Of a stretch of 64,000 nt of DNA, positions 3,692 through 43,458 are shown piece by piece. Below the pieces are notes generated by a model. The model was given only the letters and a program-made list of their open reading frames with translations. It made no database searches and had not been told where the DNA came from. The first letter of the stretch is position 1. Each line of letters opens with the position of its first letter. The stretch comes from Gammaproteobacteria bacterium (GTDB lineage: Bacteria; Pseudomonadota; Gammaproteobacteria; Steroidobacterales; Steroidobacteraceae): positions 5,285-69,284 of the forward strand of contig JAABQQ010000238.1 of NCBI GenBank assembly GCA_011391405.1. The letters run 5' to 3'. The translations under genes and the position numbers were made by a program.

Positions 3692-5902
3692 ATGGACGTT
3701 TCCCACATTCTTGCGCCGCTGAACGACGCGCAGCGGCAGGCCGTGAGTGCCCCGCTATTGCCAACCCTGGTGCTGGCCGGCGCCGGTAGCGGCAAGACGC
3801 GCGTGCTGACCCACCGCGTCGAATGGCTGGTGCAGGTCGAGGGCGTGTCGCCGCACGGCATCCTCGCCGTGACGTTCACCAACAAGGCCGCGGCCGAGAT
3901 GCGTCACCGCATCGAGACACAGCTCGGCCTGCCTTCCGCGCCGCTCTGGATCGGCACCTTCCACGGCATCTGCCACCGTTTGCTGCGCCTGCACTGGCGC
4001 GAGGCCGGGCTGCCGCAGGGGTTCCAGATCCTCGACGGCGAAGACCAGCAGCGCCTGGTCAAGAAGATCATCCGCGGCCTGAACCTGGACGACACGCGCT
4101 GGGTACCGCGCGAAGTGGCGTGGTTCATCAACGCGCAGAAAGACGAAGGCCTGCGCCCGAAGCAACTGAAGGACGACGGCGACCCGACGCGTCACCAGCT
4201 GATCAAGCTATACGAAACGTACGAGGACACCTGCCGCCGCAATGGCGTCGTCGATTTCGCCGAGCTGCTGCTGCGCTGCTACGAGATCCTGCGCGAGACG
4301 CCGGGCCTGGGCGAACACTACCGCGCGCGCTTCAAGCACGTGCTGGTCGACGAATTTCAGGACACCAACACCATCCAGTACAACTGGATGAAGGCGCTGG
4401 TGGGATCGACCAGCATCCCGTACGTCGTGGGCGACGACGACCAGTCGATCTACCGCTGGCGCGGCGCGCGGGTCGAGAACCTGCAGCAGTACCGCAGGGA
4501 TTTCCACGACGTGCAGCTGTTCCGGCTCGAGCAGAACTACCGCTCGACCGGCAACATCCTCGACGCCGCCAACGCCATCATCGGCAACAACAGCGGCCGC
4601 ATCGGCAAGAAGCTCTGGACCAGCGAAGGCAAGGGCGCGCCGCTGCGCCTCTTCCGCGCCTATAACGAGCGCGACGAGGCCGAGTTCGTCATCGGCAAGA
4701 TCCGCGAGTGGATCGCGCGCGGCGGCAAGCGCGCCGACAACGCCATCCTCTACCGCTCGAACGCACAGTCGCGGGTGTTCGAAGAATACCTGCTCGCCGC
4801 ACGCATTCCGTACCGCGTGTACGGCGGCCTGCGGTTCTTCGAGCGCCAGGAAATCAAGGACGCGCTGGCATACCTGCGCCTGATCTCGAATCGTGACGAC
4901 GATGCTTCGTTCGAGCGCGTCGTGAACCTGCCGACGCGCGGCATCGGGGCGCGCACGCTCGAAGTGCTGCGGGCCCACTCCCGCGAGCACGTGAAGTCGA
5001 TGTGGCAGTCCGCGTTCGAATGCAACGAAGACCTGGGCAGCAAGGCGGTCTCGTGCCTGCAGGCGTTCCTGACGCTCATCGAGAAGCTCGACGCCGAAAC
5101 GCAGGGCCTGCCGCTGCACGAACAGGTCGACCACGTGATCCAGGCGAGCGGCCTGGTCGGGCACTACCAGAAGGATAAGGCCGACAAGGGCGAGGCCCGG
5201 CTCGAGAACCTCGAGGAACTCGTCAGCGCCGCGCGCGGCTTCGAGCCCGAGGACATCGACATGCCGCCGCTGATGGCGTTCCTGTCGCACGCCGTGCTCG
5301 AGTCCGGCGAAGGCCAGGCCGAGGCCTGGGAAGACTGCGTGCAGATGATGACGCTGCACTCGGCCAAGGGTCTCGAGTTCCCGGTCGTGTTCCTGTGCGG
5401 CCTGGAAGACGGCCTGTTCCCGCACCAGCGCTCGATCATGGACGTGCACGGGCTCGAGGAGGAGCGTCGCCTCTGTTACGTAGGCTGCACGCGCGCCATG
5501 CGGCAGCTGTATGTGAGCTATGCCGAGCAGCGCCGCATGCACGGGGTGGACAACTTCGGCGCCCCGTCCCGGTTCCTCGCCGAGATTCCGCTGCAGCTGA
5601 TAGAGGAAGTCCGGCCCAAGGTGCAGGTCTCCCGGCCGATGTATTCCCCCCAGTCGCGCCAGGTTCCACAGCAGGCGACTCGCCCTGTCGGCAGTAACCT
5701 GTCCATGAGCGGACGGCGGTTCCAGGACGAGAATCCGGTAGGGGCATTCAAGCTCGGCCAGCGGGTCCGTCACGCCAAGTTCGGGGACGGGGTGGTCCTG
5801 AGCCTGGAAGGCCAGGGCGCCCACGCCCGCGTACAGGTGGTGTTCGAGCGCCAGGGCACCAAGTGGCTGATGCTGGGGTACGCCAACCTGGAAACGCTCT
5901 GA
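3692..5902 (+). CDS. uvrD: ATP-dependent DNA helicase II UvrD
   Basis: LNDAQRQAV...AGAGSGKT Walker A, VDEFQDTN, QNYRST and TLHSAKGLEF helicase motifs. 736 aa. Confidence 0.93.
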   Translation: MDVSHILAPLNDAQRQAVSAPLLPTLVLAGAGSGKTRVLTHRVEWLVQVEGVSPHGILAVTFTNKAAAEMRHRIETQLGLPSAPLWIGTFHGICHRLLRLHWREAGLPQGFQILDGEDQQRLVKKIIRGLNLDDTRWVPREVAWFINAQKDEGLRPKQLKDDGDPTRHQLIKLYETYEDTCRRNGVVDFAELLLRCYEILRETPGLGEHYRARFKHVLVDEFQDTNTIQYNWMKALVGSTSIPYVVGDDDQSIYRWRGARVENLQQYRRDFHDVQLFRLEQNYRSTGNILDAANAIIGNNSGRIGKKLWTSEGKGAPLRLFRAYNERDEAEFVIGKIREWIARGGKRADNAILYRSNAQSRVFEEYLLAARIPYRVYGGLRFFERQEIKDALAYLRLISNRDDDASFERVVNLPTRGIGARTLEVLRAHSREHVKSMWQSAFECNEDLGSKAVSCLQAFLTLIEKLDAETQGLPLHEQVDHVIQASGLVGHYQKDKADKGEARLENLEELVSAARGFEPEDIDMPPLMAFLSHAVLESGEGQAEAWEDCVQMMTLHSAKGLEFPVVFLCGLEDGLFPHQRSIMDVHGLEEERRLCYVGCTRAMRQLYVSYAEQRRMHGVDNFGAPSRFLAEIPLQLIEEVRPKVQVSRPMYSPQSRQVPQQATRPVGSNLSMSGRRFQDENPVGAFKLGQRVRHAKFGDGVVLSLEGQGAHARVQVVFERQGTKWLMLGYANLETL

Positions 5903-7358: not shown

Positions 7359-8807
7359 ATGCTAGCCGTCGTCAACGTCCTCGGGTCAATGCTGATGCTG
7401 TTCAGCGTCACCTACCTGCTGCCGATGGTCACGTCGCTGATCTACCGCGACCGCATGCTGATCGATTTCGTCTATGCCGCGGTGATCTGCATGGCGGTGG
7501 GCGCAGCCATGGTCGGGGCGACCCGGCGACACAAGCGCGAACTGCGCTCGCGGGACGGTTTTCTGCTGGTCACGCTGGCCTGGGTCCTCATGTCGGCCAT
7601 TGCCACGGTGCCGCTGCTGATCGCGTTGCCGGAGCTGACCTTCACCGACGCATTCTTCGAAACCATGTCCGGGCTCAGCACGACCGGCGCCACGGTGCTG
7701 ACCGGACTCGACACCCTGGCCCCGTCGCTGAACATGTGGCGCGCGACGCTGCACTGGTTCGGCGGCATGGGCATCATCGTCCTCGCCGTGGCGATCCTGC
7801 CGCTGCTCGGCGTTGGCGGCATGCAGCTCTACAAGGCCGAGACACCCGGCGCGGTCAAGAACGAAAAGCTGACGCCGCGCATTACCCAGACGGCCAAGGC
7901 GCTGTGGGTCGTCTACCTGCTGATCACCATCGGCGGTGTCGCGGCACTAAAGATCGCCGGCATGAACTGGTACGACGCCGTCTTTCACGCATTCTCGACC
8001 GTCTCGCTGGGCGGATTCTCGAACTACGACGCAAGCATCGGTCACTTCGACTCGCCGGCCATCGAAGCCGTCCTGATCGGGTTCATGCTGCTGGCAGCAG
8101 TGAACTTTTCCCGGCATTTCATTGCGTGGCAGCAGAAAAGCCTCCGCACCTACCTGGTGGATGTCGAAGCCCGCGCAATGCTGCGACTCGTGGCTGTAGC
8201 GATCCTGGGCGTGACGCTGTACGTATGGACCCACCAGGTGTACCTGGATTTCCTGACCTCCTTGCGCCACGTCGCGTTCAACCTGGTCGCGTTCGCGACG
8301 ACCTGTGGCTTCGTGACTCAGGACTACGCCTCCTGGCCGATCTTCGCGCCGATGATCATCATCATGCTCTCCTGCTATACCTGCAGCACGGGCTCGACCG
8401 GCGGCGGCATCAAGATGTTCCGCACGCTGGTGCTCGTCCAGCAGGCGTCGCGCGAGCTGTTTCTGCTCGTGCACCCCCAAGCCGTGACGCCGGTCAAGAT
8501 CCGCAACCAGGTGGTCGCCAACCACGTCGTGTTCGCCGTGCTCGCGTTCGTCGTGCTGTATTTCGGCACCGTCGTCACGCTGACCTTCCTGCTGCTCGCG
8601 AGCGGCATGGACTTCATCAGCTCGTTCACGGCCATCATTGCGACGATCAACAATGCGGGGCCGGGCCTCGGCGTCGTCGGGCCGGCCAGCAATTACCAGG
8701 GACTCACCGACTTCCAGACGTGGGTCTGCTCGCTGGCGATGCTGCTCGGGCGCCTGGAGATCTTCTCGGTGCTGGTGCTGCTGACGCCGACCTTCTGGCG
8801 CAAGTAA
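7359..8807 (+). CDS. trkH: Trk system potassium transporter TrkH
   Basis: Polytopic membrane protein with SGLSTTGATV- and GSTGGGIK-type selectivity-filter repeats. Immediately downstream of trkA. Confidence 0.9.
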   Translation: MLAVVNVLGSMLMLFSVTYLLPMVTSLIYRDRMLIDFVYAAVICMAVGAAMVGATRRHKRELRSRDGFLLVTLAWVLMSAIATVPLLIALPELTFTDAFFETMSGLSTTGATVLTGLDTLAPSLNMWRATLHWFGGMGIIVLAVAILPLLGVGGMQLYKAETPGAVKNEKLTPRITQTAKALWVVYLLITIGGVAALKIAGMNWYDAVFHAFSTVSLGGFSNYDASIGHFDSPAIEAVLIGFMLLAAVNFSRHFIAWQQKSLRTYLVDVEARAMLRLVAVAILGVTLYVWTHQVYLDFLTSLRHVAFNLVAFATTCGFVTQDYASWPIFAPMIIIMLSCYTCSTGSTGGGIKMFRTLVLVQQASRELFLLVHPQAVTPVKIRNQVVANHVVFAVLAFVVLYFGTVVTLTFLLLASGMDFISSFTAIIATINNAGPGLGVVGPASNYQGLTDFQTWVCSLAMLLGRLEIFSVLVLLTPTFWRK

Positions 8808-38884: not shown

Positions 38885-39364
38885 TCAGCGCCATGCCAGT
38901 TGCCGCCAGGCTTCGTAGACGACCACGGCCACGGCGTTCGACAGGTTCAGGCTGCGGGCGCCCGGTCGCATTGGAATCCGGAGGCGCCGCCCGGGCGGAC
39001 AGTCCCCCAGCACCGCCTCCGGCAACCCGCGCGTCTCCGGACCGAACACAACGACATCCCCGGCTGCGTAACTCACCGTGTCGAAGTCAGCCTGCCCTTT
39101 GGTCGTCAGCGCGTACCAGCGCGTTGGATCGCCGTTTTCCCCAGCGGCCGCCAGCGACGTCAGGCAGGACCTGAGGTCCGCATGAACGCGGACCTCGGCC
39201 AGTTCGTGGTAATCGAGGCCGGATCGCCGCACGGATCGTGCATCGAGCCGGAACCCGAGCGGTTGCACGAGGTGCAGGCTGGCACCCGTGTTCGCGCACA
39301 GCCGGATGACGTTGCCGGTGTTGGGCGGGATCTCAGGTTCGAACAGGACGACGTGCAGTGGCAT
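38885..39364 (-). CDS. trmL: tRNA (cytidine/uridine-2'-O)-methyltransferase TrmL (SpoU/TrmH family)
   Basis: VVLFEPEIPPNTGNVIRLCANTG and SLNLSNAVAVVVYEA motifs. 159 aa. Confidence 0.88.
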   Translation of the reverse strand: MPLHVVLFEPEIPPNTGNVIRLCANTGASLHLVQPLGFRLDARSVRRSGLDYHELAEVRVHADLRSCLTSLAAAGENGDPTRWYALTTKGQADFDTVSYAAGDVVVFGPETRGLPEAVLGDCPPGRRLRIPMRPGARSLNLSNAVAVVVYEAWRQLAWR

Positions 39365-39426
39365 AGAATCGGGTGCGACGCTCGCGGGACGGCCTCGCGC
39401 GCAGGAACTGACCGGGGGATTCTCGC

Positions 39427-39855
39427 ATGGTGCAAGTCAAGCAACTGCTCGGACGCAAGGGACATGCCGTCTGGTCGGTGGATGCCGACGAACCGGTGCT
39501 CGAAGCCATCCAGATGATGGCGGACAAGCACGTGGGCGCGCTGCCCGTCACTCGCGGCGGCGAACTCGTCGGGGTGGTTTCCGAGCGCGACTACGCCCGC
39601 AAGGTGATCCTGCTCGGTCGTTCCTCGGCCGAAACACCCGTCTGGCAGATCATGAGTGCACCGGTGGTGACAGCCGCGCCCGACGATGGCGTGCGCCATT
39701 GCATGCAGGTCATGACCGAGAAGCGGATCCGTCACCTGCCGGTCGTGGAGGGCGGACGCATGATCGGCATGATTTCGATCGGCGACCTCGTGCGCGTGGT
39801 GATCGAAGAGCAGGACCAGACGATCGAGCACCTCAACCGCTTCATTGCGGGCTGA
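39427..39855 (+). CDS. CBS-pair domain protein
   Basis: Two CBS repeats (HVGALPV..., IRHLPVVE...GMISIGDLV). 142 aa. Confidence 0.8.
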   Translation: MVQVKQLLGRKGHAVWSVDADEPVLEAIQMMADKHVGALPVTRGGELVGVVSERDYARKVILLGRSSAETPVWQIMSAPVVTAAPDDGVRHCMQVMTEKRIRHLPVVEGGRMIGMISIGDLVRVVIEEQDQTIEHLNRFIAG

Positions 39856-39938
39856 GGTCGCCCGCGACAAGTCGGGGCGGCGTCTGTCCGGCCCACCCCG
39901 CCGTCGGACGATGCGGTGATTTCATTTACAATTCAGGC

Positions 39939-40907
39939 ATGCACGCCCCCCTGAATCCGTCGCTGGCCGTCGATTTCTGCGGTCTGCGGCTCGCTTCTCC
40001 CATCGTCCTCCTGTCCGGGTGCGTCGGTTTCGGCGAGGAGTACACGCGGGTGGAAGGATTCTCGAACCGCGACGTCGGGGCGATCGTGCTGAAGGGCACG
40101 ACGCGCGAGCCGCGACTCGGCAATCCGGCGCATCGCGTCTACGAAACGCCGATGGGGATGCTCAATGCCATCGGCCTGCAGAACCCTGGCGCCGCTTACG
40201 TGATCGACCAGATCCTGCCCACGCTCGACTTCACCGAAACGGCGTTCTTCGCCAACGTCTGCGGCTCGACGATCGAGGACTACGTCGAGGTAACGCGCCG
40301 TTTCGACGAGTCGCCGATCGACGCGATCGAGCTGAACATCTCCTGTCCCAACATCAAGGAAGGCGGCGTGCAGTTCGGCAATTCGCCCGACATGTCGGCC
40401 CGCGTGGTCGAAGCGTGCCGGCGCGTGACGAAGAAGCCGCTCATCACGAAGCTGTCGCCGAACCAGACCGACATCAGGGAAAACGCGCGGCGCTGCATCG
40501 AAGCGGGCAGCGATGCGCTCGCGGTCATCAACACCGTGATGGGCATGGCCATCGACGTGAAGTCGCGCAAGCCGGTCATCGGCAACATCCAGGGCGGCCT
40601 TTCCGGGCCGGCGATCAAGCCGATCGCGCTGCTGAAAGTGATGCAGGTCGCCGAGGTCGCGCGCCCGCACAACGTGCCGATCATCGGCCAGGGCGGCATC
40701 TGCAGCGCGGACGATGCACTCGAGTTCATCATCGCGGGCGCGACGACCGTTGGCGTTGGTACCGCGCTGTTCTACGAGCCGCACAGCTGCAAGCGCATCA
40801 ATGACGGCATCGCTGCGTATCTCGCGGCGAACAACATGGAATCGGTCAGTGCGCTGATCGGTAGCCTCGACGCGCCGACGAAGTCGGTCCAGGCCTGCGC
40901 CTGCTGA
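39939..40907 (+). CDS. pyrD: Class 1 (1B-type catalytic subunit-like) dihydroorotate dehydrogenase family flavoenzyme
   Basis: Close motif-by-motif resemblance to Bacillus-type PyrD: SGCVGFGEEY, MLNAIGLQNPG, ELNISCPN, GGLSGPAIKPIAL, IIGQGGI. No pyrK-like partner is adjacent. Confidence 0.75.
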   Translation: MHAPLNPSLAVDFCGLRLASPIVLLSGCVGFGEEYTRVEGFSNRDVGAIVLKGTTREPRLGNPAHRVYETPMGMLNAIGLQNPGAAYVIDQILPTLDFTETAFFANVCGSTIEDYVEVTRRFDESPIDAIELNISCPNIKEGGVQFGNSPDMSARVVEACRRVTKKPLITKLSPNQTDIRENARRCIEAGSDALAVINTVMGMAIDVKSRKPVIGNIQGGLSGPAIKPIALLKVMQVAEVARPHNVPIIGQGGICSADDALEFIIAGATTVGVGTALFYEPHSCKRINDGIAAYLAANNMESVSALIGSLDAPTKSVQACAC

Positions 40908-40956
40908 CTGTCTCTTACCTCTCCCACCGCAGGGCGAAAAAGCGTCTCTGCCGTGC

Positions 40957-41176
40957 GCGGTGCTGGAGGTGACGGTCTTCTGCCGCGCCCCGAAGTCTCC
41001 CGCGCATCGTGAATCGCGCGGAGGATCCGCACGATTCACGGCGACCCTTGCGCGAGCGGGAGCGAAGCGATGGTGTCAGCGCAGTAGCGACCGGACGACG
41101 GTGCCGCTTCGCTCCTACGCTCGAGCTGCGGCGTCCGACACGGGGCGCGGCAGAAGACCGTCACCTCCAGCACCGC
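40957..41176 (+). repeat. Structured palindromic element, copy A (220 bp: 36-bp perfect terminal inverted repeats plus a 148-bp asymmetric core with two internal hairpins)
   Basis: Arms 40957-40992 and 41141-41176 are exact reverse complements. Inner hairpins are CGTGAATCGCGCGG/CCGCACGATTCACG and GGAGCGAAGCG/CGCTTCGCTCC. The outer 9-bp pairing 40945-40953/41205-41213 extends the stem. Confidence 0.85.
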
Positions 41177-41728
41177 ACGCTCCGTAAGTCCCTTTTTCGC
41201 GTCGCGGCAGAGATGAAGACACCCGCACCCGGCCTCGCGGCCGGACTCTCCCGACCAAGTAGCGTTACGGTGGCTGTCCGCTCATCTCGTCGAGGTCGGT
41301 TCGCAACCTCTGCGCCCAGGCCTGAACGGCGTGGCGAAAATCGGCACTGTTGGCGACCGTGCCCGGGAACTGCAGTGTGCGTATCACGCCAGGCTGCGCT
41401 CCGGTGTGTTCATGTGGAGGCCGGCAAGACCGGGGCTCACGCGGATGGTATCGTCGCCCGGGGATCCGGCCCCAGGGAGCACGTACAGCGCGGCCTCACG
41501 GCGCGCGGATATTCGCGCCCACTCTCGACCCGGCCGCATCGAGCAGCAAGCCGTAATGCCGACAGCGAGAGAGGCGGAAACTAGACGTCGTCCCTGCTTG
41601 CGCCTGTTCAGCAATCTCGCCTCTCCCACCGGTTGTCGCCTCGCCCGAATTAGCGGGATTAGTCGCGCAGAGCACGGTTGAGGGTCTTCTCTGTCCTGCG
41701 TTGCCGGGCTTGCAACGTGCGGTGAGGT

Positions 41729-41954
41729 CGTGCGGTACCGGAGGTGGCGGTCTTCCTCCGCGCCCCGTGTCGGACGCCGCAGCTCGAGCGCAGGAGCGAA
41801 GCGGCACCGTGGCCTGGTCGCTACTGCGCTGACACCATCGCTTCGCTCCCGCTCGAGCAAGGGCCGCCGTTAATCGTGCGGGTCTTCCGCACGATTAACG
41901 AAGCGCGGGAGACTTCGGGGCGCGGAGGAAGACCGCCACCTCCGGTACCGCACG
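41729..41954 (-). repeat. Structured palindromic element, copy B (226 bp: 39-bp perfect terminal inverted repeats plus a 148-bp core), inverted relative to copy A
   Basis: Arms 41729-41767 and 41916-41954 are exact reverse complements. The reverse-complemented core aligns to copy A without indels, with about 12 substitutions in 148 nt by hand alignment. Confidence 0.85.
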
Positions 41955-42051
41955 CGTTCACTTCGTAACGATGGTCCGGTCGCCGAGGAAAAAGAGAGGC
42001 CCTCACCCGCACTTTGCGCAACCACTCCCACTGCCGTGGGAGCGGCGAGAA

Positions 42052-43458
42052 CTAGACGTCGTCCATTCCGAGTTCCTTGAGCTTGCGCGTCAGCGTATTG
42101 CGACCCCAGCCGAGCAGCTTCGCCGCTTCCTGTCGTCCGCCGCGAGTCACTTTGAGCGCTTCACGCAGCAGCGTGCGCTCGAACTCCGGCAGCGCATCTT
42201 CCAGCAGCGGCGTGCCACCGCTCACGAGGCGCACCTGCGCCCAGCTCGCGAGTGCTACCGACCACTCCGTGCCATTGGCCGTCGCCATCGCACCGGCTCC
42301 GCCGAGATCGGCCGGAATGTCGCTTGCCTTGATCTCGCGCCCGGCCGCCAGCACCGTGAGGCGACGACACGCGTTGACGAGCTGCCGTACGTTGCCGGGC
42401 CAGTCGAAGGCCGCAAGTGCGCGCGCCGCGTCCTCGGACAGCACTTTAGGCGCGACGCCGAGTTCGATCGCCGCAACGTCGAGATAGTGCTGCAGCAGCT
42501 CGGGGATGTCCTCGCGGCGATTGCGCAGCGGCGGCACTTCGATGCGAATGACGTTCAGGCGATGCAGCAGGTCTTCGCGAAAGAGATTCACCTTCACGCG
42601 CGATTCGAGATCCTGGTGCGTGGCGGCGATGACGCGCACGTCCACTTTCACCGGCAACTGGCCGCCGACGCGATAGAACTCGCCTTCCGCCAGCACCCGC
42701 AGCAGGCGCGTCTGCAATTGCGGCGACATATCGCCGATTTCGTCGAGGAACAGCGTGCCACCGTCGGCCTGCTCGAAGCGCCCGCGGCGCAGCTCGGTAG
42801 CGCCGGTGAATGCGCCCTTCTCGTGGCCGAAAAGTTCCGACTCCAGCAGGTCGGCCGTGAACGCCGACGTGTTGAGCGCGATGAACGGCTTGGTGGCGCG
42901 CGGACTGTGACGATGCAACGCGCGTGCGACCAGTTCCTTGCCGGTGCCGGACTCGCCGGTGATCAACACCGTCATGCTCGAGCGTGACAACCGCCCGATC
43001 GCGCGGAACATGTCCTGCATCGCCGGGGCGTGCCCGAGCATTTCGGGAATGCGGCGCGACTCGGCGGCCGACTCGACGGACTGCTGCTGCGTGGCTGCGC
43101 GTCGCACCAGCTCGACGGCCTGGTCGATGTCGAACGGCTTCGGCAGGTATTCGAACGCACCGCCCTGGTAGGCCGCGACGGCGCTGTCGAGATCGGAGTG
43201 CGCGGTCATCACGATCACGGGCAGCTGCGGCCGCCGCGTGCGCACGTCGTCCAGCAGTTCGAGCCCGCTCCTGCCGGGCATGCGAATGTCGGTCACCAGC
43301 ACGTCGGGCTCGCCACGGCGCAAGGCGGACATTGCGCTGTCGGCGTCCTCGAACGCAATCGGCGACATGCCCGCCTGTTTCAGTGCCCGCTCGAGCACCC
43401 AGCGGATCGATGCGTCGTCGTCGACGATCCAGACTTCAAGTGCCGGCGGTGGGTTCAT
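42052..43458 (-). CDS. ntrC: Nitrogen regulation protein NR(I), sigma54-dependent response regulator NtrC
   Basis: Receiver domain (VWIVDDD...D), AAA+ sigma54-activator motifs (GESGTGKE, GAFTGA, ESELFGHEKGAFTGA) and a C-terminal Fis-type HTH. Downstream of ntrB and glnA. Confidence 0.93.
   Translation of the reverse strand: MNPPPALEVWIVDDDASIRWVLERALKQAGMSPIAFEDADSAMSALRRGEPDVLVTDIRMPGRSGLELLDDVRTRRPQLPVIVMTAHSDLDSAVAAYQGGAFEYLPKPFDIDQAVELVRRAATQQQSVESAAESRRIPEMLGHAPAMQDMFRAIGRLSRSSMTVLITGESGTGKELVARALHRHSPRATKPFIALNTSAFTADLLESELFGHEKGAFTGATELRRGRFEQADGGTLFLDEIGDMSPQLQTRLLRVLAEGEFYRVGGQLPVKVDVRVIAATHQDLESRVKVNLFREDLLHRLNVIRIEVPPLRNRREDIPELLQHYLDVAAIELGVAPKVLSEDAARALAAFDWPGNVRQLVNACRRLTVLAAGREIKASDIPADLGGAGAMATANGTEWSVALASWAQVRLVSGGTPLLEDALPEFERTLLREALKVTRGGRQEAAKLLGWGRNTLTRKLKELGMDDV

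Follow-up and report, generated by a model that had tools for sequence, protein, structure and literature searches.

An apparently undescribed family of intergenic palindromic elements with a conserved, strand-specific core in Steroidobacteraceae-like Gammaproteobacteria

The convergent pyrD and ntrC genes of a Steroidobacteraceae genome are separated by a gap of more than 1.1 kb, which raises the question of what occupies this gap and how it is maintained there. The gap lies within a 64-kb stretch of DNA (64,000 nt of contig JAABQQ010000238.1, hereafter the window) and holds two units of about 220 bp, A and B, each consisting of an asymmetric core enclosed by long complementary arms. Small palindromic intergenic repeats such as REP, ERIC, NEMIS and bcr1 are known, and the reason for their retention in genomes is still argued. 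The family described here separates two things that are usually confounded, namely a near-neutral stem that is seemingly kept perfect by recombination and a selected core that is strand-specific. It offers a testable case of one repeat that recombines as a DNA palindrome and is at once under selection as a single-stranded structure.

Contents of the pyrD-ntrC gap

Features of the gap and of the genes on either side are listed below, in window coordinates.

39936-40907, + strand: pyrD (dihydroorotate dehydrogenase), left convergent gene; stop codon 40905-40907, start coordinate estimated by a GC3-based gene caller; Pfam DHO_dh, E=4.9e-77; synteny with loci L074-L077
40927-40953: copy A, left half of the outer flank stems; 40927-40947 pairs with 41187-41207 at 76%, and 40945-40953 with 41205-41213 exactly
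40957-40992: copy A, left arm of the 36-bp perfect closing stem (repeat finder, 100% complementary)
40993-41140, - strand (folded strand): copy A, 148-nt conserved core with hairpin 1 (41008-41040) and long hairpin P2 (41050-41127), from covariance model, wobble asymmetry and covariation
41141-41176: copy A, right arm of the closing stem (repeat finder)
41187-41213: copy A, right half of the outer flank stems, pairing imperfectly with the left half
41265-41375, - strand: orphan-ORF remnant (last 36 codons and stop) in the spacer between copies A and B
41569-41593: 25-nt copy of the ntrC stop-codon region 42040-42064, as a direct repeat (22/25 identical)
41717-41727: copy B, left half of the outer flank stem
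41729-41767: copy B, left arm of the 39-bp perfect closing stem; the stem continues to 41722 at 93%
41768-41915, + strand (folded strand): copy B, 148-nt conserved core with P2 (41782-41858) and hairpin 1 (41868-41900), on the same evidence as in copy A
41916-41954: copy B, right arm of the closing stem, which continues to 41961 at 93%
42001-42012: copy B, right half of the outer flank stem, pairing with 41717-41727
42052-43458, - strand: ntrC (glnG), right convergent gene; stop codon 42052-42054; Pfam Response_reg, Sigma54_activat and HTH_8

Homologues of the ntrC product carry the names GlnG or NR(I) and come from Steroidobacteraceae, while a look-up of the exact window protein gave no record; ntrB was also identified among the genes flanking the gap. 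The initial annotation described the gap as lacking any credible ORF. This holds insofar as no ORF inside it matched Pfam, and the short ORFs of the core, inspected by eye, show no conservation of frame because element subtypes differ by 2-3 nt in P2; coding potential was thus rejected. However, the gap is not featureless. The orphan-ORF remnant corresponds to a 91-aa ORF that is intact at the syntenic locus L009, has no Pfam match and retrieved only itself in a homologue search. The 25-nt duplicate of sequence at the ntrC stop scored 35 in local alignment, where shuffles reached 29 at most. It is the footprint of a local duplication or rearrangement, and the resulting direct repeat brackets the segment that contains copy B. 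A larger duplicated unit around A and B, with flanks as direct repeats, was also considered; a 12-nt REP-like motif was all that the flanks had in common, which was unconvincing.

The perfect closing stems first noted by inspection in copies A (40957-41176) and B (41729-41954) were recovered by a repeat finder, which extended the arms of copy B to 46 nt at 93% (41722-41767 and 41916-41961, with the inner 39 bp perfect) and aligned the two units as a 228-nt inverted pair at 89%. Matches to a covariance model of the family cover 40977-41156 on the - strand in copy A (200.9 bits) and 41752-41931 on the + strand in copy B (207.1 bits). The opposite orientation claimed for the two copies can be stated for the asymmetric core only and is undefined for the arms, because these are palindromic. 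The remaining pairwise claims were borne out: the gap-free alignment of the 148-nt cores shows 12 substitutions, each 36-nt arm has 5 differences, all of them mirrored in the partner arm, and hairpin 1 covaries (CGTGAATCG/CGATTCACG in copy A, CGTTAATCG/CGATTAACG in copy B). As for the outer flank stems, the 9-bp pairing of copy A is exact, and that of copy B requires a 1-nt bulge. Folding energy was -190 kcal/mol, compared with -126 +/- 5 in shuffles (z about -12.5 on either strand), which sets the fold apart from chance.

A family with a core folded on one strand

Family members were sought with a 20-mer scan of MAGs and a 22-mer scan of metagenomes, followed by covariance model R1. The scans yielded 10 MAG loci and 63 metagenome loci, and the model identified 72 full-length copies scoring 134-211 bits. 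These occupy at least 20 distinct flanking-gene contexts in Steroidobacteraceae-like MAGs and metagenomes, so conservation of the core extends to many genomes beyond the source strain. Copy number is low, with two copies in the 64-kb window and none in 85 kb of four relatives; weak model matches elsewhere in the window (62340, 11550 and 8917) are not accompanied by inverted repeats and were dismissed as noise. A permissive E-value scan of the gap against Rfam 15 returned only spurious long-hairpin matches to plant miRNA precursors (42-44 bits versus a gathering score of 168), and six other loci gave zero matches at gathering scores. Searches of plasmids, phages and viral contigs gave no match, nor did blastn against 5,426 E. 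coli genomes. Judged from these comparisons, the elements appear to constitute an undescribed and uncatalogued low-copy family of about 220 bp in Steroidobacteraceae-like Gammaproteobacteria.

All members share the same basic architecture. The closing helix is 30-45 bp long and near-perfect, and its sequence is conserved in the inner 10-16 bp only. Within it, the 148-nt core folds on one specific strand (the R strand; - in copy A, + in copy B) into a three-way junction that carries two covarying hairpins, P2 and hairpin 1. The junction comprises three short invariant helices, with small internal loops between them that are conserved and rich in purines (GRA opposite nGA). Hairpin 1 tolerates wholesale replacement and extensions of 40-50 nt.

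Pairing is maintained throughout the family. In the model alignment, 98.9% of pair cells are paired, and double-sided changes occur in 32 of 56 pairs (446 cells). None of 500 shuffles reached the observed values, and slid controls were 33-49% paired. In the closing stem, 1958 of 2044 cells are Watson-Crick, so that no uncompensated arm differences emerged in other copies. The compensated differences and the low conservation of the outer arm ends agree with the proposal that pairing, rather than a protein-binding TIR sequence, is what is maintained. A search for further covarying column pairs or pseudoknots returned only subtype-driven noise.

The folded strand was identified from wobble pairs. 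On the R strand, G.U exceeded A.C by 185 to 14 in the inner helices and inner stem, and by 29 to 2 (p=5e-7) when each arm group was represented by one copy and the invariant G.U was excluded. The RNAalifold consensus energy points the same way (-75.4 kcal/mol on the R strand, -57.9 on the other). In the closing stem, the asymmetry of 44 to 19 across all copies fell to 15 to 9, which is not significant, with one copy per arm group, and the argument is therefore confined to the inner helices.

Constraint, location and turnover

Orthologues of the pyrD-ntrC gap differ at 20-34% of ntrC 4-fold sites, 8-28% of arm positions and 2-9% of core positions. The core thus evolves 2-5 times more slowly than 4-fold sites, and the arms are near-neutral. 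A second locus, the TypA site, holds two paralogous copies that are 23-32% apart, while for either copy, orthologues that share a form of hairpin 1 are no more than 4-9% apart. This pattern reflects purifying selection on each copy and not concerted evolution.

Information content in the arms is 1-1.9 bits over the inner 10 nt and drops to 0.1-0.6 bits at the outer ends. No part of the element is less conserved than its termini, so the arms are not transposase TIRs. Between sites, the outer halves of the arms show no relationship; arms are site-specific and common to orthologues, so transposition has not been recent. The orientation of the core varies among orthologues at four sites with collinear flanks, a flipping that is seen between lineages only, with both orientations not observed in any one population.

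Selection for pairing and hairpin-templated correction had been offered as alternative causes of the compensated changes; both seem to be true, of different parts. Arms that are near-neutral, perfect and free of significant strand bias, around a core that flips, point to arm-to-arm recombination, and strand-specific wobble intermediates in the inner hairpins point to selection on a single-stranded fold. The long arms would be kept identical mainly by DNA-level recombination between them, which would also flip the core, and the inner helices would be maintained through selection on the single-stranded fold.

Convergent gaps hold 43 of 49 copies, at a distance of 4-125 nt from a stop codon. Housekeeping genes flank the elements, and no functional theme unites these genes. 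In the window, the element is found at one of six convergent junctions, and four of the other five have gaps of <=10 nt. Two arrangements were considered for orientation relative to the neighbouring genes. In co-directional gaps, the folded strand is sense three times and antisense three times. Where a gap holds a pair of copies, each copy's folded strand runs in the direction of the distal gene and not the proximal one; this arrangement was dropped as evidence on orientation, since no more than 3-4 independent sites underlie the 14 gaps of this kind.

Gain and loss are both observed. The pyrD-ntrC gap is 3 nt (L077) or 19 nt (L075) in relatives without the element and 310-1144 nt in the window's clade, which carries it. 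At the PntB site, five relatives sampled blind comprised one full copy, three with only a deleted or decayed copy, and one rearranged locus without a copy. Hairpins that have lost their core are still present in L001 and L082, and one deletion junction is shared by two unrelated sites. In the past, the family has spread to new convergent gaps, that of pyrD and ntrC included, and copies have also been lost by deletion. Insertion into a pre-existing hairpin was considered as well, as GCGGTGCC occurs both in the empty 19-nt gap of L075 and at the start of the arm; a single 8-mer was not taken as evidence. The initial annotation had put forward an ncRNA family, a MITE-like element and an insulating hairpin as candidates, and all of its refuting conditions that the sequence data could address turned out in favour of its reading. 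Restriction to convergent gaps, core flipping and the dynamics of gain and decay all went beyond what it had expected.

Structured RNA, mobile element or DNA switch

The best reading, which we hold tentatively and at a little under an even chance, is a structured RNA module carried on read-through transcripts, with arm-to-arm DNA recombination keeping its stem perfect. The folded strand would then be RNA rather than single-stranded DNA, and it would be transcribed, processed and functional. The long helix could serve as a 3'-end barrier or as a processing stem for a double-strand-specific (RNase III-type) enzyme, and the conserved junction could be the bound or active part of the element. Transcription from outside would fit the absence of sigma-70 and terminator consensus matches in the element and of any terminator-like site in 40700-42300; a sigma-54 promoter was also rejected, as the TGGCAC-like motifs of the core, examined by hand, are wrongly spaced. 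Several observations weigh against this reading. Strand-specific wobble alone does not part RNA from single-stranded DNA; DNA hairpins, too, tolerate G.T better than any other mismatch. The element is not constrained in its orientation to genes and is dispensable, as seen from the single occupied junction among six in the window, the empty sites and the losses at the PntB site. A barrier function accounts for the stem and not for the conserved core. A fuller version of the structured-RNA reading is doubtful, and we give it a rather low probability: a new class of bacterial structured RNA without its own promoter would reside in convergent gaps, be transcribed by read-through, and be excised or capped via a 30-45-bp helix of free sequence. 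As DNA, that helix would recombine arm to arm, stay perfect and flip the RNA gene between two transcription units, and a protein-binding site or catalytic core might lie in the conserved three-way junction and its purine-rich internal loop.

A selfish, non-autonomous element (MITE- or REPIN-like) with no host function is the main rival, unlikely on balance and still of appreciable weight. It would pass through a strand-specific hairpin intermediate of single-stranded DNA whose core is read by a trans-encoded enzyme, and would survive mainly in convergent gaps since insertions are harmless there. Dispersal over at least 20 sites, orthologous sites both filled and empty (the latter, at the pyrD-ntrC gap, a sign of past mobility), decayed and core-deleted copies with a recurrent deletion junction, small nested palindromes of other kinds hosted by hairpin 1, and the lack of a functional theme among flanking genes all fit this explanation, and strand-specific G.T tolerance suits single-stranded DNA as well as RNA. 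A preference for convergent gaps is also known in REPs and SPRITE, and YPAL inserts beside dyad symmetries with duplications of 3-26 bp (PMC3184786, PMC2229807); here, a 25-nt direct repeat encloses the segment with copy B. Against it, no consistent TSD was found: at 58 stem ends the length distribution of direct repeats was the same as in a shifted control, a test that a short, decayed TSD may escape given old copies with fuzzy ends. The poorly conserved termini offer no TIRs that would match a parent IS, and a parent IS is present at no locus; the features by which the initial annotation would have counted it an ordinary MITE are thus lacking. No copy is adjoined by a transposase, RAYT, RT or integrase, and copy number is low. 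Neutral residents would also not be expected to have cores preserved 2-5 times better than 4-fold sites, with paralogues each retaining their own subtype.

Two further explanations concern the DNA switch and the terminator. An inverton, in which the 148-bp segment flips between inverted repeats and alters transcription into the convergent genes, is highly improbable. Core orientation does differ among close orthologues, and the inner 10-16 bp of the repeats are conserved in the manner of a recombinase site. Homologous recombination needs a minimum repeat length shorter than 30-45 bp, and the perfect arms exceed it. However, both orientations are found between lineages and not within one population, the core has no promoter consensus in the sigma-70 scan, the neighbouring genes are housekeeping and include no recombinase, and invertons usually sit upstream of the genes that they control rather than between 3' ends. 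A double-stranded switch would also have no need of inner hairpins that covary with strand-specific wobble. The least probable reading is a simple, strong, bidirectional terminator or insulator hairpin with the core as a passenger. It would account for the convergent-gap positions, the stability of the helix on both strands and the persistence of core-deleted hairpins in L001 and L082. Against it, none of 58 stems is followed on either strand by TTTT within 12 nt (T content 0.14-0.16 versus a background of 0.17), the stems far exceed the length of terminator stems, the element is missing from the remaining five convergent junctions of the window, and conservation is highest in the core.

Comparison with known systems bears on the structured-RNA reading as well. 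REP, ERIC, NEMIS and bcr1 are transcribed palindromic elements of 3'-UTRs, with effects on termination, the stability of mRNA or its cleavage by RNase III (PMC3184786, PMC2229807, bioRxiv 10.64898/2026.03.23.713779). ERIC/IRU and YPAL (of enterobacteria and Yersinia) and bcr1 of Bacillus resemble the new family as non-coding palindromic units of 120-170 bp in transcribed intergenic DNA, occurring in either orientation, with long RNA stem-loops and filled and empty sites; bcr1 also shows compensatory changes, and YPAL is likewise not AT-rich, lacks a terminal TA and inserts beside dyad symmetries (PMC2229807, PMC3184786). In contrast to these, the new family has no sequence similarity to them (blastn, E. 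coli genomes as above), a conserved 148-nt asymmetric core with its own three-way junction, a perfect, sequence-free stem of 30-45 bp, no TSD and a low copy number. REP, BIME and REPIN sequences are similarly GC-rich extragenic palindromes that prefer convergent gaps, form hairpins in single-stranded DNA or mRNA with compensatory changes, and serve in 3'-UTRs as stabilisers and partial terminators (PMC3116915, PMC3184786, bioRxiv 10.64898/2026.03.23.713779). REPINs keep their two arms (REP 16-mers) and vary the spacer, whereas here the core is conserved and the arms vary; they also number hundreds per genome, clustered by RAYT gene, as opposed to two copies in the window with no adjoining RAYT.

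The Correia/NEMIS elements of Neisseria are bounded by TIRs, measure about 100-155 bp and are co-transcribed with their neighbours, with RNA hairpins that are RNase III substrates (PMC2229807). They are the nearest precedent for a processing stem. Their conserved 24-26-bp TIRs, TA duplication, AT-richness and hundreds of copies do not apply to the new family. Bacterial 16S and 23S rRNAs are flanked by RNase III processing stems, in which the 5' and 3' flanks of a conserved RNA form a long helix. There, too, the helix sequence is free and covaries, with only its innermost part retained and conserved. The likeness is one of analogy only, and the new element differs in being dispensable, multi-site and without its own promoter. 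Invertons share the short segment between inverted repeats in both orientations among relatives; the new element is unlike them in lacking a nearby recombinase or promoter consensus, in lying between gene 3' ends and in its strand-specific internal covariation. Retron ncRNA (msr-msd) is closed by inverted repeats (a1/a2) as well, and differs in having a reverse transcriptase gene directly downstream; an RT-like gene adjoins none of the sites of the new family. A template/variable pair of the DGR type was rejected, as the differences between copies A and B, inspected by eye in the alignment, are not adenine-specific.

If the core is a functional RNA, it would represent a new family with very strong covariation support in a lineage of soils and sediments that has received little study. 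A core that instead served an unknown system of single-strand transposition as its recognition module would be new as well. Elements of this kind also break short-read assemblies, with about 15 of the 63 metagenome matches sitting at contig ends, and they enlarge intergenic gaps that are left blank in annotation.

Copies A and B between pyrD and ntrC

The gap at 40908-42051 is flanked by convergent pyrD (DHO_dh) and ntrC, with ntrB beyond. The initial annotation had described here two inverted-repeat copies with perfect arms of 36 and 39 bp and cores of 148 nt, and the arm coordinates bear this out. The strand listed is that on which the core folds (the R strand).

Copy A: arms 40957-40992 and 41141-41176; R strand "-"; 36 bp, 100% complementary, enclosing 148 nt
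Copy B: arms 41729-41767 and 41916-41954; R strand "+"; 39 bp, perfect, with pairing reaching 46 bp at 93%, enclosing 148 nt

The two units form a 228-nt inverted pair with 89% identity. The gap-free alignment of the cores shows 12 substitutions over 148 positions, as had been estimated by hand. On each side the arms have 5 differences in 36 positions, each mirrored in the partner arm, in agreement with the claim that all five were compensated. The statement that B lies opposite to A can be made only for the core, because the arms are palindromic. Outer stems formed by the flanks are present on both copies as reported, with that around B requiring a bulge. Folding energy is approximately -190 kcal/mol on either strand, versus -126 +/- 5 for shuffled sequences. 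In the 64-kb window, a covariance model of the family (R1, built on 52 copies) recovers only these two copies, scored at 207 and 201 bits; all further matches (<=22 bits) are partial self-matches or noise.

Several minor features are found in or next to the gap (L-numbers denote loci fetched from MAGs, metagenomes and relatives).

39288-40907: listed as a 539-aa ORF; by synteny with L074-L077 and codon-position GC not a single gene but two: a CBS-domain gene of 142 aa in another frame (39427-39855), then pyrD from ~39936
41265-41375 (-), between A and B: remnant (C-terminal part) of an orphan ORF of 91 aa, intact in L009 (507-782, -), with no Pfam match and no homologue but itself among 5.8 billion proteins
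41569-41593 and 42040-42064: 25-nt direct repeat, 22/25 identical, spanning the ntrC stop and last four codons and enclosing a 446-nt segment that holds copy B; it could be a duplication footprint or, as described for YPAL, a long target duplication
40919-40930, 41621-41632, 42000-42008 and 42025-42042: short REP-like motifs (CTCTCCCAC(C)...GTGGGAGAG mini-hairpins and GGGTGAGGGC/GCCCTCACCC), which recur in flanks in L004, L008, L012, L051 and L062
~10 nt beyond the ntrC stop: one such mini-hairpin, CTCCCAC TGCC GTGGGAG

A covarying structure that folds on one strand

The proposal that substitutions preserve pairing extends to the whole family. Standard pairs make up 98.9% of the 4005 pair cells in the R1 alignment, and 32 of 56 pairs show both-sided changes (446 cells). 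In 500 shuffles none of these values was reached, and with the partners slid out of register 33-49% of cells were paired. Double changes are distributed among the helices as follows, P2 and hairpin 1 being the two inner hairpins of a three-way junction.

Closing stem: 13 of 15 modelled pairs
Hairpin 1: 12 of 14 pairs
P2, distal part: 6 of 10 pairs
Three short junction helices and P2 base: sequence-invariant, and thus uninformative on pairing either way

Full closing stems, typically 30-45 bp long, are Watson-Crick paired in 1958 of 2044 cells (59 unique copies). The arms carry 1-1.9 bits of sequence information over their inner 10 nt and 0.1-0.6 bits at their outer ends, a gradient that is the reverse of transposase-bound TIRs. 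Hairpin 1 can be swapped for an unrelated short hairpin or lengthened by 40-50 nt through a nested palindrome. Such inserts occur at unrelated sites (L014 1100-1323, L065 2427-2652, L016 1113-1335, L051 129-353, L072 1990-2216, L013 206-417 and L028 205-415), one type having GGAAATAGG...CCTATTTCC arms and a second being that of L013 and L028; they represent either a second small mobile palindrome aiming at hairpin loops or a stem of variable length.

Wobble pairs indicate which strand folds. Read on the R strand, the inner helices together with the inner stem contain 185 G.U against 14 A.C; de-replication to one representative per arm-similarity group and exclusion of one invariant predicted G.U leave 29 against 2 (8 vs 2 columns, p=5e-7). 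For example, one hairpin-1 pair is U.G in 38 copies, U-A in 12, C-G in 10 and A-U in 9, and would be a conserved C.A mismatch on the opposite strand. For the 52 sequences behind R1, RNAalifold gives a consensus energy of -75.4 kcal/mol when the R strand is folded and -57.9 for the opposite strand. In the closing stem the asymmetry is weak (44 vs 19 in all copies; 15 vs 9, not significant, once de-replicated).

Distribution, turnover and conservation

A core 20-mer search returned 10 loci in Gammaproteobacteria/Steroidobacteraceae MAGs, and a 3'-junction 22-mer search returned 63 metagenome contigs; NtrC homologues assign the window itself to Steroidobacteraceae. Over 421 kb of fetched loci, R1 found 72 full-length copies in well over 20 distinct genomic contexts (by flanking-protein clustering), many of them seen in several related contigs. 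No match occurs in Rfam 15, plasmids, phages, viral contigs or E. coli genomes; the initial annotation had likewise not recognised a named family. About 15 of the 63 metagenome matches lie within ~150 nt of a contig end (L022, L029, L037-L040, L043, L047, L049, L060, L061, L064, L069), which points to the repeated core as a likely break point of short-read assemblies.

Among the 49 copies whose two neighbours could both be called, 43 sit in convergent gaps, usually at 10-125 nt from either stop; the family is largely confined to such gaps, and its copies have been gained and lost over time. The neighbours, named by eye from translations, are ordinary housekeeping genes such as TypA, MscL, PntB, UvrA, malate synthase, GspF and MlaA, among others. 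In the window, one of six convergent junctions holds the element; at four of the remaining five the gap is <=10 nt. Of the copies in co-directional gaps, three have the R strand in sense and three in antisense orientation. Paired copies always have outward R strands (14 gaps, only 3-4 independent sites); this is given no weight, since inverting one of the two would leave direct repeats, which delete easily.

Among orthologues with collinear flanks, the core occurs in both orientations at four sites: PntB (3 vs 3), malate synthase (1 vs 2), a TypA-adjacent site, and the ntrC/pyrD gap, where L003 and L070 combine B-type flanks with a core that is flipped compared with the window. L001, too, differs from the window, in having the spacer that separates its two copies inverted. 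The pyrD-ntrC gap is only 3 nt (L077) or 19 nt (L075) in relatives with 85-88% NtrC identity, and at 90% identity (L074 11411-11528) it holds a different palindrome of ~118 nt; an R1 scan of these relatives' 85 kb found no copy. In the L074 palindrome, a GC-rich hairpin is surrounded by many GTGACTAGT/ACTAGTCAC repeats.

Five relatives chosen without regard to the element show, at the PntB site, a full copy, a hairpin with the core precisely deleted, a partial remnant (69 bits), an outer hairpin only, and a rearranged locus with no copy. An identical core deletion with arms kept is observed at two unrelated sites, L082 11490-11570 and the pyrD-side copy of L001 (~4000-4090). Its junction, CGCGCTTCG|ACACGG (loop GTCTCnCGCGCTTCG|ACACGG), is found where the three-way junction has its base, with TTCG/TCCG microhomologies on either side, and the deletion probably arose by structure-promoted slippage. 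A 208-aa HNH/HNH_5 endonuclease gene is conserved in L078-L082 (~7640-8270, -), ~1.7 kb upstream of pntB and just upstream of pntA; it is present in 5/5 PntB loci with or without the element, and has no apparent link to it.

Among orthologues of the pyrD-ntrC gap (window, L001, L003, L009, L023, L070), divergence is 20-34% at ntrC 4-fold sites, 8-28% in the arms and 2-9% in the core. At the TypA site, two subtypes lie side by side, 23-32% apart, and each differs by 4-9% between orthologues of the same hairpin-1 form, versus 15-20% at TypA 4-fold sites. Each copy is therefore conserved in its own right, and concerted evolution of paralogues cannot account for the conserved core. The arms change at a near-neutral rate, yet remain perfect, which is hard to achieve by waiting for compensatory double mutants and easy by arm-to-arm conversion.

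Possible roles and relation to known repeats

The family is uncatalogued. Its core is under purifying selection and folds on one strand, and the inverted repeat that closes it is long, near-perfect, free in sequence and subject to recombination. The favoured reading, held tentatively, is a structured RNA: the R strand would act as RNA produced by read-through, from which tolerance of either orientation in convergent gaps would follow. The long helix may serve as a 3'-end barrier or a double-strand processing stem, by analogy with stem roles proposed or shown for NEMIS, ERIC and REP (PMC2229807; bioRxiv 10.64898/2026.03.23.713779), and activity or binding would reside in the invariant junction.

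The main rival, a selfish element whose mobile form is strand-specific single-stranded DNA, would fit the dynamics of gain, decay and nesting, but appears less likely given the low copy number, the absence of recent copies, the conservation of old resident cores copy by copy, and the lack of an enzyme near the copies (no transposase, reverse transcriptase or recombinase among the neighbours). Minor alternatives are an inverton-like switch and a plain terminator. No T-run follows any stem, and the gap has no promoter or terminator consensus.

In genomic behaviour, the element groups with the small palindromic intergenic repeats ERIC, YPAL, bcr1, REP/REPIN and NEMIS (PMC3184786, PMC2229807, PMC3116915), with none of which it shares sequence. 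It was rejected as a MITE, having neither conserved TIRs nor target-site duplications above chance, and it departs from the REPIN pattern of conserved arms and a variable spacer. The general class is familiar and any function putative; the covariation support is unusually strong. Its architecture is new among small palindromic repeats, combining a conserved asymmetric three-way-junction core, a long stem of free sequence, core flipping and low copy number.
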